This document shows positions 4,830 to 58,236 of a stretch of DNA of 64,000 bases, piece by piece. The stretch is from Eledone cirrhosa. Lineage: Eukaryota. The DNA lies in contig OZ024742.1 of the NCBI GenBank assembly GCA_964016885.1, forward strand, positions 104,594,001 through 104,658,000, given 5' to 3'. The notes beneath the pieces were generated by a model. That model did no database searches. It was not told the DNA's origin and saw only the letters and a program-made list of their open reading frames with translations. Each line of letters begins with the position of its first letter. Position 1 is the first letter of the stretch. The position numbers and the translations under genes are program-made.

Positions 4830-5322
4830 CTCATGACAGTCACTTGTAATTGGGTATGATTTGGGGTGTTAGATTTCTTTTACACATTAAAGTTAAACAA
4901 TCAATAATGAAATAATTAATAACATTAGTAAATCTCTTCAACTTCTTTGATAACTAATTCAAAGTATTTCACTAGAATTACAGTAACAAAAGGGTTAAGG
5001 CAATAGAGTGATTGGGTTACTATTTCTATAGCAGATCAATCAATTGTATAGAGACACTCTCATTGGGTTTTGGTTAAATATGGATCATTAAAAATAAGGG
5101 CATTCTATGTAACCATTGCACCAAAAAGACACCAATATCAGTATGAAGTCTGCCATGGAGTCTGAGAGATTAATTCCTACTTTAACATGGAAAATAGCCT
5201 TAAAATGGTTCTTGTTGTTATTGCCTGTATATAAGCTGGAAAGAAAACGAAACATGTAGGTGTACAGATGTACAATCTAACTCATAAACACAGTTTAGAA
5301 ATTGGCAGTGGCAACTTCAAAA

Positions 5323-5672
5323 ATACAGATATAATATAGACACAAACACATATATATATAGTCTAACAAAGTTCTTTCGTTGCACATCTGCAACATCGTC
5401 AGTGGTGCTATTATGTTTCTTTTGTTAGACTATATATATGTGTTTGTGTCTATATTATATCTGTATATTTGACCGTTGGTCAGTCAATGGTAAACATTGA
5501 GGACCAAATAAATTAACTGATATAAAAGATACAGAAGCAAAAACCAACCAAACAGTGAGTGTTCTGATATTATTTCTGGCAATGTTATTACAACAATATG
5601 ACACTCCTCAAGTATAACAATATTTGTTTCGACACATGATTTCATATAAAAAAACCACGCAAAACAAATATA
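5323..5672. mobile_element. Penelope-like pLTR fragment with inverted duplication (family C)
   Basis: Arms 5323-5370 and 5420-5467 flank a hammerhead; downstream sequence matches 32845-33050 (inverted) and 33120-33180. Confidence 0.7.
5365..5406 (-). ncRNA. Minimal hammerhead ribozyme motif
   Basis: Minus strand: ACCA CUGACGA U GUUGCA GAUG UGCAAC GAAA GAAC UU UGUU; perfect core and 6-bp stem II, imperfect stem I. Confidence 0.7.
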
Positions 5673-5687
5673 TATATATATATATTT

Positions 5688-6025
5688 TCATTTCATTTCA
5701 TTTTATGTCCGCTTTTTTCCTGCTTGCAAGGGTGGGACGGGAACAGATTCTGGCTTGATTTCTACAGCTGGATGCCCTTCCTAACACCAACTTCATTTAC
5801 AGTGAGTGCTGGGTGCTTTTTTGCCGTGGCACCTCCAAGACCACTTTGCAGTGGTATGATATGGACCCCAGTCCCTATCATCTCATTTCTACAGCTGAGT
5901 AAACTGGAGCAATGTGAAATAAAGTGTCTTGCTCAAGGAAACAACACATCACCCGGTCTGAGAATTAAACTCACAATCTTTCGATTGCAAGGCCAATGCT
6001 CTAACCACTAAGCCATGTGCCTCCA
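5688..6025 (-). mobile_element. Chimeric tRNA-head/RTE-tail SINE
   Basis: Head GGAGGCACATGGCTTAGTGGTTAGAGC...GAGTTTAATTC; body matches RTE 3' UTR at 8770-8850; tail matches RTE family B; near-identical copies at 17987 and 31412. Confidence 0.8.
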
Positions 6026-24309: not shown

Positions 24310-24888
24310 ATTTACACCCTCAGCCTCCTGATTCCTCTCCCACCACCCCTCTATCCACACACGCACAGACACTCCGACCTACAACCCCCCCCCCCCCCCT
24401 CTTCCTGAACATGCAACCCCGTTCTTCCCCCAACCCTTACTTTCACATACACACACACACACACGTACACCTACACACACACACCACCTTCAGCCCTCCC
24501 CGCTCGGACACCCCATCTCCCTCTCCCCACTCCACCCGCCACCACCCCTACACACCCCACACCCTTCCACCACCTGTTTTACCCCTTTTTAATTTCAGTT
24601 TATTTTGATCATGCTTTATATTTATTTTTATTTCATTCCTTTTATTTTGATCATGCTTTATTTTTATTTTTATTTTTAATTTCATTCGCACCGTTTCCTT
24701 TCGCTATATGTCTCTCCACCACTCCCCTACACACCCTTTAAACTCTGTTCCCACACACTTCTCACCTGAGGAAGGGCTTATGCCCGAAACGTCGTTCCCC
24801 ACCACCACCCCACTCTCCAGAGCGTGAAATTAATAAACATTCGTTGTACTGCCTCTCTGTTTTGTTCCTGTTCAAATTTTTCCATTAT
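24310..24888 (+). mobile_element. Penelope-like 3' region (C-rich UTR, hammerhead, AATAAA)
   Basis: Hammerhead core at 24766, AATAAA at about 24832, ends in (TA)n. Confidence 0.6.
24762..24797 (+). ncRNA. Minimal hammerhead ribozyme motif
   Basis: CUGAGGA A GGGC UUAU GCCC GAAA CG UC; canonical core and GUC site; stem I only 2 bp (AC/GU). Confidence 0.65.
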
Positions 24889-24935: not shown

Positions 24936-26717
24936 GGAAAACGTAATAGCGCAACTAATCAGAGAGAGAATTGACCTAGATGAAATGCAGTTCGGGTTTG
25001 TGTCAGGCAAAAGTACCACAGACGCTCTTTTCATAGTACGACAACTACAGGAGAAGTACCTAGCTAAAGGTAAACCCCTCTACTTAGCTTTTGTCGACCT
25101 GGAGAAAGCCTTCGACAGAGTCCCCCGCTCCATTATCTGGTGGGCTCTTAGAAAACTAGGCGTTGACGAATGGCTTGTGAGGGCTATACAAGCCATGTAT
25201 AAAGAAACAGTCAGCAAGGTTAGAATTAACAACGAATATAGTGAAGAGTTTAGCGTAAAAGTTGGCGTCCATCAGGGCTCTGTTCTCAGCCCCCTACTAT
25301 TTATTATTACCCTTCAGGCTATAACAGAGGAGTTCAAGACAGGCTGCCCATGGGAACTCCTATACGCAGACGACCTGACACTCATAGCAGAATCAATGGC
25401 CGAGCTAGAGAAGAAATTCCAAACATGGAAGCACGGCCTAGAGTCAAAAGGACTTAAAATTAACCTGGCTAAGACCAAAGTTCTAGTTTGTAGAAAAGAA
25501 AACAAGGCGGCGGTCCCTTCTGGGAAATGGTCGTGCTCGGTGTGTAGGAAAGGCGTAGGTAGAAACTCCATTTTATGTCCTAAATGCAAAGTATGGGTGC
25601 ATAAAAGATGTAGTGGGATCACAGGTAAGCTAACTAAGAACATAGATTTTACATGTGGCCGGTGTTCTGGTGCAATAAGTAGCAGCAAGTGCCCACAAAA
25701 TACTAGCTCTTTCAATTGCGCAGAGGGTTCTATAGAAATAGTGGACAGCTTCCGTTACCTGGGCGATAAAATCAGCAGTGGCGGAGGGTGCTCTGAAAGT
25801 ACTGTAGCTAGAGTCAGAACTGGTTGGAAAAAGTTCAGAGAGCTTATACCACTATTAGCTGTTAAAGGGTTCTCCCTAAAAATGAAAGGCAGGTTGTACG
25901 ATGCCTGCATACGAACAGCAATGCTGCATGGCAGTGAGACCTGGGCATTGTGTGCAGAGGATATACGCAGACTAGAGAAGAACGAAGCTTGCATGCTCCG
26001 CTGGATGTGTAACAGTAATATACGTGAACGGCAAAGCATAAACGAACTAAGGAAAAAATTAGAGATAAGAGGGATCAGATGTTGTTTACTCGAGAGAAGG
26101 CTACGTTGGTATGGACACGTGATGCGCATGAAAGTCGATAGCTGTATAACAAAGTGCAGGGCAATAAAGATAGACGGTAGTCACGGAATAGGCAGACCTA
26201 GAAAAACCTGGGACGAGCTGATAAACTCCGACCTCACACACTTACACCTCTCCAAGACAATGTCACTGGACCGAGACCTTTGGCGGTACTCAGTAACAGA
26301 GAAGACCCGCCTTACCTAAATATATAGTAAAACCTACTCCAGCCAGTAGGCATCTCTAACAAAATACACCCCGTCCCACCACCACCACCCCACCCCATCC
26401 ACACCACCCCGTTCTATGTAAAGTTATGTTGGTGCCGCGCCATCCAGGCCGAAACAAATGAGATCGTGTAGGTGTCACGAAAAAAAAACACACAGTCCAC
26501 GCTGTAATGTGGCCGTGTAGGCAACACGGTAAAAACCTCCCAGACCCACACTGTAAATGTGGTTGGTGTTAGGAAGGGCATCCAACTGTAGAAAACCTGC
26601 CAGACAGTCCTATGCGAGCAAGACAATCACTCTTGCCTCAAGTGGGACTACCCCCGTCCAAACCCATGCAAGCGTGGAACACGGACGTTAAACGTTGATG
26701 ATGATGATGATGATGAT
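24936..26717 (+). mobile_element. RTE-clade LINE family A, 5'-truncated, young
   Basis: Open RT ORF, about 400-bp 3' UTR, (ATG)n tail, TA on both sides. Confidence 0.95.
24937..26319 (+). CDS. Reverse transcriptase (RTE ORF C-terminal part; endonuclease missing) with PHD-like finger
   Basis: QFGF, AFVDLEKAFD, GVHQGSVLSP, LLYADDL, FRYLG, RRLRWYGHVMR, GRPRKTW; frame open from 24937 to the stop. Confidence 0.95.
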   Translation, partial: ENVIAQLIRERIDLDEMQFGFVSGKSTTDALFIVRQLQEKYLAKGKPLYLAFVDLEKAFDRVPRSIIWWALRKLGVDEWLVRAIQAMYKETVSKVRINNEYSEEFSVKVGVHQGSVLSPLLFIITLQAITEEFKTGCPWELLYADDLTLIAESMAELEKKFQTWKHGLESKGLKINLAKTKVLVCRKENKAAVPSGKWSCSVCRKGVGRNSILCPKCKVWVHKRCSGITGKLTKNIDFTCGRCSGAISSSKCPQNTSSFNCAEGSIEIVDSFRYLGDKISSGGGCSESTVARVRTGWKKFRELIPLLAVKGFSLKMKGRLYDACIRTAMLHGSETWALCAEDIRRLEKNEACMLRWMCNSNIRERQSINELRKKLEIRGIRCCLLERRLRWYGHVMRMKVDSCITKCRAIKIDGSHGIGRPRKTWDELINSDLTHLHLSKTMSLDRDLWRYSVTEKTRLT

Positions 26718-27458: not shown

Positions 27459-27910
27459 ATCAACATAGTAATTGAATGGTACTTTATTTTATTGACTCCA
27501 GAAAAATGACAGTTGACCTCAGCAGGATTTGAACTCAAAATTTATAGAGCTGAAACAAATACCACAACACTTTGTCTGATGCACTAATAATACTACCAAT
27601 ACATCGTCTGCATTCAATATGATATAGTGACATCATTAAGGAGGGGTATCCTGAACAATCTTTTCATTTTTAAATATTTACATTTTTACAACCCTTCCTT
27701 CCTACAGAAGAATAACATTTTTAAAACCCCTAAAATACGGTCAAGTTTCTTCTGTTGCTAACTTGGACTATTTGTAGTATGTCACACTGACTGTGTCTCC
27801 CCACCCACTATTATTTTGCTAAGTGTAATAAGTCACAAAGAAGGGATTTTTTAAGAATCACTCACTTCCTACTCCAGTATCATTGGCCAGCGGCATTAGT
27901 GTAGTCTTGG

Positions 27911-27950
<40 letters not shown>

Positions 27951-28295
27951 GAGAGAGAGAGGGCTTGAACAAATGCCACCAGGCATTTTGTCTGATGCCC
28001 TAATAATTCTGCCTTACATATATATATATATATGTATATGTGTGTGTGTGTATATATATATGTATGTGTATATATTTCGTTTCTGAATTTGTTTAGCAAG
28101 ATTCTTTATCTGAAAACGTGTGTTGAAACCGATATTGTTAAACTTTGGGAGGGTCTTGTTGCCAATAAGAAACACACGCACCAGTTGCTTTCACTCCAAT
28201 TTATTATAAATTAAATTTATAAATTTAAGAATTTATAAATTTATAAATTTCCGGTTGGTTGGTTGGTTCCACAACCGGACGGTTATTCATATATT

Positions 28296-28338
28296 GTCAA
28301 AGTTCTTTCGTCACACATTCTGTGACCTCTTCAGTGAC
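28296..28338 (-). ncRNA. Minimal hammerhead ribozyme, intact
   Basis: GUCA CUGAAGA G GUCACA GAAUG UGUGAC GAAA GAAC UU UGAC: 4-bp stem I, 6-bp stem II, CUU site. Confidence 0.85.
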
Positions 28339-28522
28339 TGGGGATTCTTCTCTTTGTTTTGTGCCTCTCCTTTGTTCTGTCCTACGCCATCTTGTTTTTG
28401 TGTGTGTTGTGTGTTTCGTTTGCGCATGTGTTACATCCAGGTGTCTGTGTGTGTTTTTATTTGTTTATTTACATGTTACTGGTTGGTTGTTTCTTCTATG
28501 TGTGTGTGTTTTCATTTTGTCC

Positions 28523-28690
28523 TTAATTGTAAGTTGTGATGTTGTTATTCCATTCATGTTTTCTATTTAATTTTGGTTGGAGTTCATTTATGTTTATTGC
28601 TTCTGTGATTTGTCTAAACATTGCGTCTTTTCTGTGTGTAGATTTTATTTTTATTTCTATGTTCTCTAATTTGCCCTTATGTTCTATTTT
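28523..28690 (-). pseudogene. C-terminus of Penelope-like GIY-YIG endonuclease ORF
   Basis: Hand translation KIEHKGKLENIEIKIKSTHRKDAMFRQITEAININELQPKLNRKHEWNNNITTYN*; the RQxxEAxxI...LNxKxEW pattern is typical of PLE endonuclease ends. Confidence 0.75.
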
Positions 28691-28824
28691 AGTAACTGGA
28701 AATTTATAAATTCTTAAATTTATAAATTTAATTTATAATAAATTGGACTGAAAGCAACTGGTGCGTGTGTTTCTTATTGGCAACATGACCCTCACAAAGT
28801 ATAACAATATCTGTATATATATAT

Positions 28825-29195
28825 AATAATGAAATAATAATGAAAATATTTTGTACAGTGCTCAGGTGCACTACAACTTATCAAAAGTGTATGTATAGTA
28901 CATCGGGTAATGTACAAACGTCAGGAAAATGAACAGTGCATGAGTCATGATATACACATGTGTGCATGTGTATGGAAGGGGTACATCAGGTGTAGTTTTG
29001 GCTAATTTTGGGAAGCATGAGGGTTTTAAAGGATGCAGTGTTTCGGCAGCTAACAACTGACGCAGGCAGTTTGTTCCATGCTTCGGCAACTCTAAGTGTG
29101 AACAAATGTTTCTGAAAGTCATGGGAGCTGTGCTGTTTTCTGATTTTGTATGCATGTCCACTTGTGTTAGACACATGGAGATCAAAAAGGTTGGG
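28825..29195 (-). mobile_element. CR1-clade LINE 3' fragment
   Basis: SNTSGHAYKIRKQHSSHDFQKHLFTLRVAEAWNKLP, homologous to 57691-57900. Confidence 0.85.
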
Positions 29196-29720
29196 TCACG
29201 TTCACTTAAAAATATTTTTTAAATAATTAAAATATACACAGACATGTCTCTCTTTCAATCTACTTTCTCAGAACCACTATATTTTTCTCTCTATCTTTCT
29301 CTCTCTCTATTTATGAAGCTACCCAGAAAAACCATGTTTCTCGGGAACCCATGCTCCAATTTATGCGAAACTTGTTTTATTCAATTTGTATTCCCATTTC
29401 AGGAGCAACTTCCTTTAAAAGTATTTTCCAATGATGCGCCATTTTGGCTGTATTAAATTACAGACAAGACACAATCACAGAGTTTTAGTAGTATGTAGAT
29501 ATATAAATATATTAGAATATGTGATTAAAATATCGCAGTATTTTAAACATTCAAACATTAACTGAGTGACCATCTAATGCTAGTGGGTAGAAAAATTTAT
29601 ACACTCACACTCACTCATACATATATACAATATGTATGTATAGTTGGAAAGAACAAACAAAATGCAGGAGTCAATTGTTCACAGCTGTATTACGTTCATG
29701 CTTAGTGGGAGTGGAGGAGT

Positions 29721-31411: not shown

Positions 31412-31753
31412 CATCATCATCATCATTTCATTTTACGTCCGCTTTTCCCTGCTTGCAAGGGTGGGACGAGAACTGATTTTGGCTTGATTTCTACAGCTGG
31501 ATGCCCTCCGTAACTCCAACCTCATTTACAGTGAGTGCTGGGTGCTTTTTTGCCGTGGCACCTCCACGACCACTTTGCAGTGGAATGATATGGACCCCAG
31601 TCCCTATCATCTTATTTCTACAGCTGAGTAAACTGGAGCAATGTGAAATAAAGTGTCTTGCTCAAGGAAACAACACATCACCCAGTGTGAGAATTGAACT
31701 CACAACCTTTCGATTGCAAGGCCAATGCTCTAACCACTGAGCCATTGCCTCCA
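31412..31753 (-). mobile_element. Chimeric tRNA-head/RTE-tail SINE
   Basis: Near-identical to 5688-6025. Confidence 0.8.
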
Positions 31754-31967: not shown

Positions 31968-32296
31968 AAGCAAAGAGATATTTAATTTGCTGCTAATTCA
32001 ACAAATTTATTTATTATAACAGATTTGAAGCACTCTACAGATTTCCTGGAGTATAATATCAATGATATTAATAAATGGAAACTATATTTATAAAACCATA
32101 TTTATTTTATTATATATATTTCAAGGGTACCAAAAAAAAATGAAACCTGAACCTATAAGGTTTGGTTTATCGGGTATACCACTATTTATAAAACAAATTT
32201 TGTATTTTATCTGATGAGAGCGTACCAAAGTTTTTTTTGGTACCCTTGAAATATATATAATAAAATAAATATAGTTTCCATTTATTAATATCATTG

Positions 32297-32842: not shown

Positions 32843-33495
32843 TATATTGTTATATTTGGGGAGGGTCATATTGTTATAATATTGTCAGAAATAATAATAG
32901 AACACACTCACTGTTTGGTTTGGGTTTATTTTTGCTTCTGTATCTTTTATATCTCCATAGTTAATTTATCTGGCAATCAATGTTTATCATTGATTGACCA
33001 ACGGTTAAAAGTACAGATATAAACATATATATATATATAGTCTATCAATGTTCTTTCGTCACACATCTGTTACATCATTAGTGGTACTAATATGTTTCCT
33101 CCCGTTGTATCGTAATGCCAAATATAACAATATCTGTTTCAACACATGATTTCATATCAAAAACCTTGCAAAACAAACATATATGAAAAAACAACCTGTG
33201 ACAACCCCCCCCCCTCTTATTTGAAGAACTATTGTAACGCGAACTGGCGCGAAATTTATTATAATTATTGACAAACCAATCAAATTACTTTCTCGAAAAA
33301 CCTGGCATTTCGAGCCACTTTTTCCATATAAAACAAGTAACATTCAGAGACCAACCAGATGTGAGAAAAACCACAGACCCTCCATCTTTTGAAAAGCAGA
33401 AGAACTGTGAAACTGGTAAAGGAACCAAATAAATATATATATTTTAAAAAATAAGACTCCAGTTGCATTTTCGATTTCATCTCTTTTTCTTTATA
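32843..33495. mobile_element. Penelope-like family C element with internal inversion and decayed hammerhead (33044-33085, minus)
   Basis: Minus: CUAAUGA U GUAACA GAUG UGUGAC GAAA GAAC; orientation flips at about 33118 with CCAAATATAACAATAT present in both orientations. Confidence 0.7.
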
Positions 33496-57512: not shown

Positions 57513-57531
57513 ATATATATATATATATGTA

Positions 57532-58236
57532 TATAATAATAATAATAATGAAATTATTGTGTAACTGCTCAGGTGCACTACAACTCGTCAAAGGTGCATG
57601 TATAGTACATAGAATAATATACAAATGTCATGGAAATGAATAGTATATGTGTCATGATATACATGTGTGTATGTGTATGGAGGGGGAACATTAGGTGTAG
57701 TGTTGGCGAATCTCGGGAAACATGGAGATTTTAAAGGATGCAGTGTCTCGACAGCTAACAACTGATGCAGGTAGTTTGTTCCATGCTTCAGCAACTCTGA
57801 GCGTGAAAAAATGTTTCCGAAAGTCATGGGAGCTGTGCTGTTTTCTGACTTTGTGGGCATGTCCACGTGTGTTAGACACATGGAAATCAAAAAGGTACTC
57901 AGGGTTGTTGTTGGCAAGATGGTTAACAATTTTGTGGGTGATTACCAAGTCAGTTGCCAGACGTCGGAGCTTCAATGTATCCATGCCCAGGGAAGCAAGG
58001 CGTTCAGAGTATGGTAGATGCCTGATGGAGGGTATTCGCTTGGTTGCACGTCTCTGAATAGTTTCCAGGCGGTCAATGTTCTGAGCAAGATAGGGGTTCC
58101 AGACTGGTGATGCAAATTCTAAGTGTGGCCGCACCATAGCCATGTACAGCCTTAAATAGAAAGCTGGAGAGCGGCTGACAAAGGTCTTGCTGGGTGATGC
58201 TAAGACACCCTCGGCCCTCTTGACAATTTTAGGATC
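57532..58236 (-). mobile_element. CR1-clade LINE, 5'-truncated
   Basis: LYMAMVRPHLEFASPVWNPY..DRLETIQRRATK..YSERLASLGM..TRGH..FFTLRVAEAWNKLP; (ATT)n tail. Confidence 0.92.

Follow-up and report, generated by a model that had tools for sequence, protein, structure and literature searches.

A 5'-truncated Penelope-like element with a minimal hammerhead motif and a Nematis-like endonuclease end, very probably dead on arrival, in Eledone cirrhosa

The 64,000-nt stretch of Eledone cirrhosa DNA analyzed here (the window; contig OZ024742.1 of assembly GCA_964016885.1) holds, on its minus strand from 28814 to 28075, what is very probably a dead-on-arrival, 5'-truncated insertion of a Penelope-like retrotransposon (PLE) with a C-terminal, Nematis-like endonuclease (EN). 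The order of the parts, a tail-less head-to-head arm at the break, (TA)n flanks and a much-repeated family running on upstream were all seen directly in the sequences, and the surrounding DNA is eukaryotic-looking and rich in microsatellites. The first-pass annotation of this locus had named an ORF end, an AC-rich UTR, a hammerhead, about 200 bp of downstream sequence and an inverted duplicate of part of it, and each of them was found where it had been placed.

Structure of the element and the start of its ORF

Read along the minus strand, the element begins with an inverted arm of 121 nt, followed by 55 codons, a spacer rich in A and C, a type I hammerhead of the minimal kind, a pLTR and a one-sided tail set in (TA)n. 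Its outer flank (28815–28845) is (TA)n followed by (ATAATAATGAA)2, the 3' terminus of a LINE fragment that predates the element and received its insertion. This LINE end (28823–29200, minus strand), which we take to be of CR1/L2 type, received the PLE in its microsatellite tail and has copies at 57517–57705 and 45122–44965. The inverted arm (28694–28814, plus strand) is a 5'-truncated pLTR that stands head-to-head with the main copy and lacks a tail. It copies positions 28256–28128 with six mismatches and one 8-nt unit absent, which bears out the inverted duplicate of about 120 bp reported earlier at the 5' truncation, and it carries the ORF start ATG at 28785 plus 10 codons. A single base (28693) lies between the arm and the ORF remnant, against loose contig ends at 28692 and 28694.

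The ORF remnant (28523–28692, minus strand) holds the last 55 codons of a GIY-YIG endonuclease and a TAA. The 55 whole codons run from 28690 to 28526 and the TAA from 28525 to 28523, with the end reading ...DAMFRQITEAININELQPKLNRKHEWNNNITTYN, and the remnant keeps the last CCHH-motif His together with the conserved R, E and N. This is the 55-codon ORF end described before, and it is followed by the AC-rich stretch also described then, a 3' spacer of 184 nt (28339–28522, minus strand; 53% A, 23% C). The hammerhead comes next (28296–28338, minus strand), with a helix I of 4 bp, an extra nucleotide at 9/10.1, a helix II of 6 bp and a helix III of 2 bp with an AA loop. Just 3' of it, a hairpin (28251–28278, minus strand) has a CCGGUU...AACCGG stem and a loop that is partly (AACC)n; the region 28240–28350 gave a z of −2.94 in one fold. 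No tandem hammerhead array was found in 27500–29500, which contains a single hammerhead together with the ORF remnant.

The pLTR body 3' of the hammerhead (28128–28295, minus strand) includes the start codon position of the ORF (28157–28155), which reads AAG in the window copy and has the ATG base in most of the contig depth in all four sequencing runs compared. The tail (28075–28127, minus strand) continues the N-terminal ORF codons; 40 nt of it, to 28088, are common to two sister elements, and it measures up to 53 nt if counted to the microsatellite. The 3' flank (28018–28074) is a (TA)n/(CA)n microsatellite, and no target-site duplication (TSD) is discernible. The window copy encodes no usable protein.

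The inverted arm ends in ...AACAATATCTGT. The forward copy goes on for another 40 nt, which it shares with the 5.6-kb and 33.1-kb elements; in the 33-kb element, the inverted arm stops 4 nt before the end of the 28-kb arm. An ATG stands in register in three arms, at 28785, 32869 and 5598. Over 19 codons, seven of the ten differences between the 28-kb and 33-kb copies fall at third positions and five of the nine changed codons are silent; one of those changes makes a stop in the 33-kb copy. Because the ATG is in register and the differences are biased toward third positions, the pLTR end and the tail are, judged by their sequence, taken to encode the first codons of the ORF. The same arrangement is described for Pen2a_Av (PMC3846280). 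A profile search of the tail-encoded N-terminal peptide against the N-termini of 29 full-length relatives scored nothing. Pairwise scores for these N-termini were not significant (19 of 300 shuffles were as good; for the 33-kb sister, 26 of 300, with the third frame scoring equally), so their visual likeness was not used as evidence.

Endonuclease relatives, family copies and origin of the insertion

An exhaustive phmmer search of 1.84 billion proteins with the window peptide returned 23 matches at E ≤ 1e-3, the best at 8e-7. The remaining match aside (P0003, an unrelated repeat protein), 22 of these look like PLE endonucleases and align across the EN end with D, R, E and N invariant; R26, E30 and N42 are invariant in 23 aligned sequences. 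The similarity to PLE endonucleases that the first-pass annotation had predicted for this peptide was thus recovered by HMMER. Pfam GIY-YIG was found in five of the 23 matches, upstream of the aligned stretch and above the cut-off in two. By this sequence likeness, the window peptide is assigned to a PLE GIY-YIG endonuclease, of which it makes up the C-terminal half.

Fourteen such sequences, with the window peptide among them, were built into a profile that gathered 96 longer relatives. Of the 96, 57 match the window peptide (E < 1e-3), in most cases no more than a few dozen residues from the C-terminus. These relatives are RT-EN proteins of ~1,070 aa. A YxDD-type RT motif was counted in 80/96, YxG[EQ][TS] in 88/96, a short Cys linker in 60/96 and H-x4-H-x-G in 55/96; YxDD lies N-terminal to YIG in 42 of the 96 and C-terminal to it in none. 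When a profile of 72 long relatives was run against all six frames of the window, it gave a single match, at 28684–28532 (E 2.3e-12), covering profile positions 971–1022 of 1033. The window has the final His of CCHH, hand-read loose ends of other copies have the His before it, and the two Cys, which fall beyond the break, are seen in the relatives only.

EN+ PLEs are defined by a telomerase-like RT and a terminal GIY-YIG domain. Relatives with a telomerase-like RT share 38–50% identity with the EN end in the window. A structure model of P0127, built from 71 sequences, reached a pLDDT of 87.8, and telomerases made up its 15 best structural matches (best Z 10.1, rmsd 4.1, 394 aligned residues). 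Telomerases were also the first three Foldseek matches to this model.

Several searches returned little. The Pfam RT model detects the relatives poorly (3 of 18 scanned), a Pfam scan of the 58-aa peptide gave no match and a word-index search of the same peptide against longer proteins gave none. No relative was found among viral contigs by protein search, and 30 exact 16-mer matches to viral contigs included none with real similarity to the element. Sequence searches of the PDB yielded only HslV at E 0.058, a chance match, and nothing for P0040. The top ESM Atlas clusters for the peptide were unnamed; the nearest named cluster (0.89) has GIY-YIG on 15% of its members and is a lead only. Of 10 clusters looked up, one had a name and none a clade name.

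A metagenome scan recovered 58 related loci. RT similarity lay upstream in 20 of the 31 loci with room for it. A strict minimal hammerhead followed the stop by 92–308 nt in 16 of 48 loci in the sense direction and in 0 of 48 in the antisense direction, with none in 20 shuffles each; the corresponding distance in the window is 188 nt. The 16 positive loci represent 5 of 27 DNA clusters. The strict motif is absent in 32 of the 48 loci, several of which have variant cores and others none. In one locus, L065, RT and EN lie in a single open frame of 1,005 aa, and a hammerhead follows its stop at a distance of 92 nt. That hammerhead (L065:3155–3225) has a two-part helix I (3 bp, an internal loop and about 7 bp), as against the 4-bp helix in the window. 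An RT upstream, an endonuclease and a hammerhead downstream, which the first-pass annotation had expected of longer copies of the element, do occur together among the related loci.

Contigs from the four runs, representing four organisms, were aligned on 27950–29050. Many of them stop matching at 28690–28692, and 40 in X1 and four in X6 leave the window at 28692 with one consensus. Read by hand in frame, the loose letters beyond 28692 give S-S-V-L-x-Q-H, the His motif that precedes H-x-G in the relatives, and some records from X4, X6 and X7 also run beyond the break. Because contigs of other copies continue upstream in frame, the break is read as a truncation of the window copy. Among the contig pieces listed, the reach beyond the break is at most about 200 nt and none contains an RT. 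Together, the protein searches, the related loci and the contigs running past the break support the earlier reading of a 5'-truncated PLE ending in a GIY-YIG endonuclease.

Some of these observations would also be accounted for by a short non-autonomous element, akin to a retrozyme or a SINE, that retained its EN end and pLTR and was amplified in trans as a fixed unit, as opposed to a one-off truncation of an autonomous copy. The family is very repetitive, with 23,431 contigs aligned in X1 (part of them on the neighboring LINE); the hammerhead exceeds the ORF end in summed contig depth, in X7 to an extreme degree; neither of the two sister elements has an ORF remnant; and a preprint derives the retrozymes of animals from PLE pLTRs (bioRxiv 10.64898/2026.07.22.740005). 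We nevertheless consider such a unit improbable. The in-frame contigs upstream of 28692 in X1 and X6 and the records past the break in X4, X6 and X7 argue against it, as does the predominance of silent changes in the ORF end. Among the 40 variants listed of 112, 13 fall in the ORF, of which nine are at third positions and eight are silent, with no stop (P 0.017 against transitions only); the variants are not independent because they are pooled across the four runs. None of the nine indels among those listed lies in the ORF. The locus also lacks the tandem hammerhead array that defines non-LTR retrozymes (bioRxiv 10.64898/2026.07.22.740005). Still less credible, and hardly to be entertained, is a host-retained (exapted) ribozyme or small gene whose inverted repeat is an assembly artefact or a DNA-transposon-like terminal repeat: 115-nt inverted arms do flank the unit as terminal inverted repeats would and the hammerhead core is intact, but the arms differ at six sites and by an 8-nt indel, which a duplicated read would not show, the tail is present at one end only and in the same register in a sister element, the ORF has neither a start nor the GIY-YIG core, and no transposase or TSD was seen.

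Under the preferred reading, a truncated PLE insertion, a master copy in partial tandem would have been transcribed and its RT-EN protein would have nicked AT-rich microsatellite DNA, here (TA)n. Reverse transcription would have been primed internally on the RNA, a few codons past the start of the next ORF, and two adjacent start sites would have given the tailed end (28075–28088) and the tail-less end (28814). The hammerhead would cut ~142 nt before the ATG of the next unit. Synthesis of the cDNA would have halted after about 620 nt, within the EN, and another short cDNA, 121 nt long, would have been joined in inverted orientation. The nicking, internal priming, early cDNA stop and inverted joining in this scheme are drawn from PLE biology.

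Hammerhead motifs in the window

The hammerhead at 28338–28296 has its core CUGAAGA at 28334, one extra nucleotide before the 6-bp helix II, and then GAAA, GAAC and UU; the predicted cut is 3' of U17 at 28300. A strict descriptor picked out six such motifs in the window; over 100 block shuffles the mean was 0.02. An Rfam search of the whole window at the gathering threshold gave no hammerhead match. The motif had been called fully paired, which holds for helix II and the 4-bp helix I and fails for helix III, whose 2 bp and 2-nt loop are absent from the monomer fold (z −0.84 for a 66-nt piece). Between the 28334 and 5402 motifs, helix II has two compensatory changes. Loop III, GAAC, is a partial palindrome and is retained by each of the three kin in the window.

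The motif resembles the minimal type I hammerheads of metazoan PLEs (PMC4209133) in its long helix II, 4-bp helix I, nearly missing helix III, unpaired nucleotide between 9 and 10.1 and G10.1–C11.1 pair. It differs from them in that its GAAC loop III would form a dimer helix with two A-A mismatches, whereas most published minimal hammerheads have a palindromic loop III. Minimal PLE hammerheads are described there as cutting weakly and only as dimers, and the hammerhead of the Anolis Poseidon element PAc as protein-dependent and dispensable for in vitro insertion (PMC11167929). Because helix III cannot fold alone, the window hammerhead probably cuts only as a dimer or with the help of a protein. 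In X7, the summed contig depth over 28283–28356 exceeded that over the ORF end roughly a thousandfold; depth is not a copy number, and the excess is only a hint of an abundant hammerhead-only relative in that organism.

Ten hammerhead motifs in the window were compared. The other short hammerhead elements had been proposed to be 5'-truncated or non-autonomous PLE derivatives; kinship with the 28-kb element was shown for two of nine motifs (5402 and 33083), and the other seven share no detectable sequence with it outside the catalytic core. The first sister element (5322–5675) has an inverted arm with a hammerhead (core at 5402, minus strand) and a forward arm with the ATG at 5598 and the tail. 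The second (32844–33184) has an inverted arm with a decayed hammerhead (core CUAAUGA at 33083, minus strand; ATG at 32869), in which G5 is lost, and a short forward arm with the tail. Compared with the 28334 element, the two are 82–85% identical over about 40 nt at the hammerhead and 76–84% over 61–76 nt at the 3' end, while the middle of the pLTR is not alignable. The ORF remnant is absent from both. In the 5322–5675 element, the forward arm begins within about 3 nt of the predicted cleavage site and the hammerhead of the inverted arm is intact. In this single case, the forward arm could be a copy of self-cleaved RNA.

A second group comprises the motifs at 32211 (+), 35069 (−), 47537 (−), 59257 (−) and, more loosely, 47831 (+), with (TA)n flanks and a palindromic loop III of the TATRTA type; an inverted arm also accompanies 32211, at 32052–32135. 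The motifs at 24766 (24766–24800, plus strand) and 36664 (36664–36605, minus strand) stand alone, one of the two being without a loop III (GAAACGUC) and the other having a long, near-palindromic helix III. BLAST and profile searches of these seven found no sequence of the 28-kb element outside the core and no ORF remnant of its lineage. The 28-kb element thus does not anchor the seven, which may derive from other PLE families; a PLE origin is plausible for them from the literature.

Two further repeats were observed in the window. An open frame of 460 aa at 24937–26319 (plus strand) encodes a LINE RT, presumably of RTE type, with a PHD-like finger (Pfam PHD, E 2e-6) directly after the RT core match; related fragments lie at about 6.0, 34.5 and 58.5 kb. 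At 31687–31744 (minus strand), a tRNA-like match (Rfam RF00005, 38.6 bits), with similar sequence near 5950–6000, is probably the head of a SINE.

Known PLE clades and the RT3–RT4 insertion

PMC8557442 describes inverted copies truncated at the 5' end, tails at one end only, hammerheads in the pLTR and targeting of (TA)n as features of PLEs. Like the canonical EN+ PLEs treated there and Pen2a_Av in PMC3846280, the window element has a C-terminal GIY-YIG EN, a hammerhead in the pLTR, an inverted copy at the 5' break, a tail at one end (30–40 nt in those elements), a pLTR and tail with the first ORF codons, and a microsatellite target. The window element differs from them in having only 55 ORF codons left, a tail of 40–53 nt and no discernible TSD. 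Poseidon PAc of Anolis is similar in its AT-rich target, its minimal hammerhead and the two adjacent end points, internal RT start sites within the ORF start, that bound the tail (PMC11167929). The PAc ORF starts inside the hammerhead in that account, whereas the ATG of the window element lies about 140 nt downstream. Penelope and Poseidon lack the Cys linker seen in the relatives.

The Nematis clade is characterized in PMC8557442 by a reduced CX2-5CxxC linker with CCHH and a C-terminal EN. The window peptide and the loose ends share the H-x4-H-x-G and R-x3-EA-x8-P-x-LN spacing with Nematis_C4/Cr (Figs S1 and S2 of that source), and in 60 of the 96 relatives a short C-x-C-xx-C-x-C linker precedes the GIY-YIG core as in the Nematis rows of Fig S2, compared by eye. 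The relatives differ from Nematis in a D-x-M/L-x-R-Q-I/V motif, a K-x-E-W end and ORFs of up to about 1,090–1,120 aa. By the His spacing in the window and the linker of the relatives, Nematis appears to be the nearest clade, in a comparison of aligned rows only. No named Nematis protein was among the relatives returned by the protein searches.

The position and ending of the EN exclude Naiad, Neptune and Hydra. Neptune has a long Zn-finger linker and an EN ending in P-x-GLN, while the window peptide ends in QPKLNRKHEW and the linker of the relatives is short. The Hydra clade has no CCHH but has Cys motifs around the catalytic E, and the window peptide has no Cys and the CCHH His spacing. In Naiad/Chlamys the EN is N-terminal to the RT and there is mostly no canonical hammerhead, whereas the EN in the window ends at the stop and is followed by a hammerhead. 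Non-LTR retrozymes (bioRxiv 10.64898/2026.07.22.740005) resemble the window element in that a type I hammerhead is carried by short units that are non-coding and related to PLE pLTRs; they form tandem arrays without an ORF, and the 28-kb element is a lone unit in which an EN remnant and an inverted arm are present.

The relatives have an insertion between RT3 and RT4, at the IFD position, as do Naiad/Chlamys and telomerase RT, and the modeled relative as a whole has a TERT-like predicted fold. Measured from the RT3 Asp to the RT4 Gly, the distance is 127–136 aa in all 58 measurable of the 96 relatives and 129–133 aa in all 65 measurable of 73 further matches, with none short. Because these sets were gathered by mutual similarity, they show one lineage and not its range. 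Hand counts from Fig S1 of PMC8557442 gave 63 for the Nematis row of C. remanei, 84 for Naiad-Amil and 118 for human TERT, the Asp position of the last being assumed from the other rows. Canonical PLEs with a C-terminal EN are described in the same source as lacking an IFD. The RT3–RT4 segment of P0127, P0040, L065:1–3100 and their kin has conserved ELGLYL, CP and W motifs and a high-confidence fold in the model. L065 combines the C-terminal EN, the hammerhead and an RT with the long RT3–RT4 segment in one piece.

These observations allow a tentative suggestion, which we hold with less than even confidence, that the window element is a remnant of a widespread but unnamed lineage of PLEs with a C-terminal Nematis-like EN, a pLTR hammerhead, an ORF of ~1,070 aa and an RT with about 70 extra residues, folded with confidence in the model, at the insertion-in-fingers, which is longer than that of human telomerase. 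As the window holds no RT of this element, its fingers insertion is inferred from the relatives. Our literature searches returned no description of such a C-terminal-EN lineage with a fingers insertion, and those on the presumed host group gave nothing about the family of the window element; Repbase, Dfam, Arkhipova 2006 and subscription papers were outside their scope, and some of the long-span families may already be filed as Nematis.

The locus itself is ordinary, a dead PLE stub of a known kind that explains the two neighboring hammerhead elements. It is also a clean case of what PAc biochemistry predicted, two end points and an overlap with the start of the ORF, here in a PLE lineage distant from PAc. 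If PLEs with a C-terminal EN, a hammerhead and a long fingers insertion are truly unclassified, the spread of the IFD among PLEs and telomerases would be redrawn. If the insertion is homologous to the telomerase IFD, the lineage would be a new living model for the origin of the telomerase RT, and intact ORFs such as those of P0127 or L065 make the role of the insertion testable.
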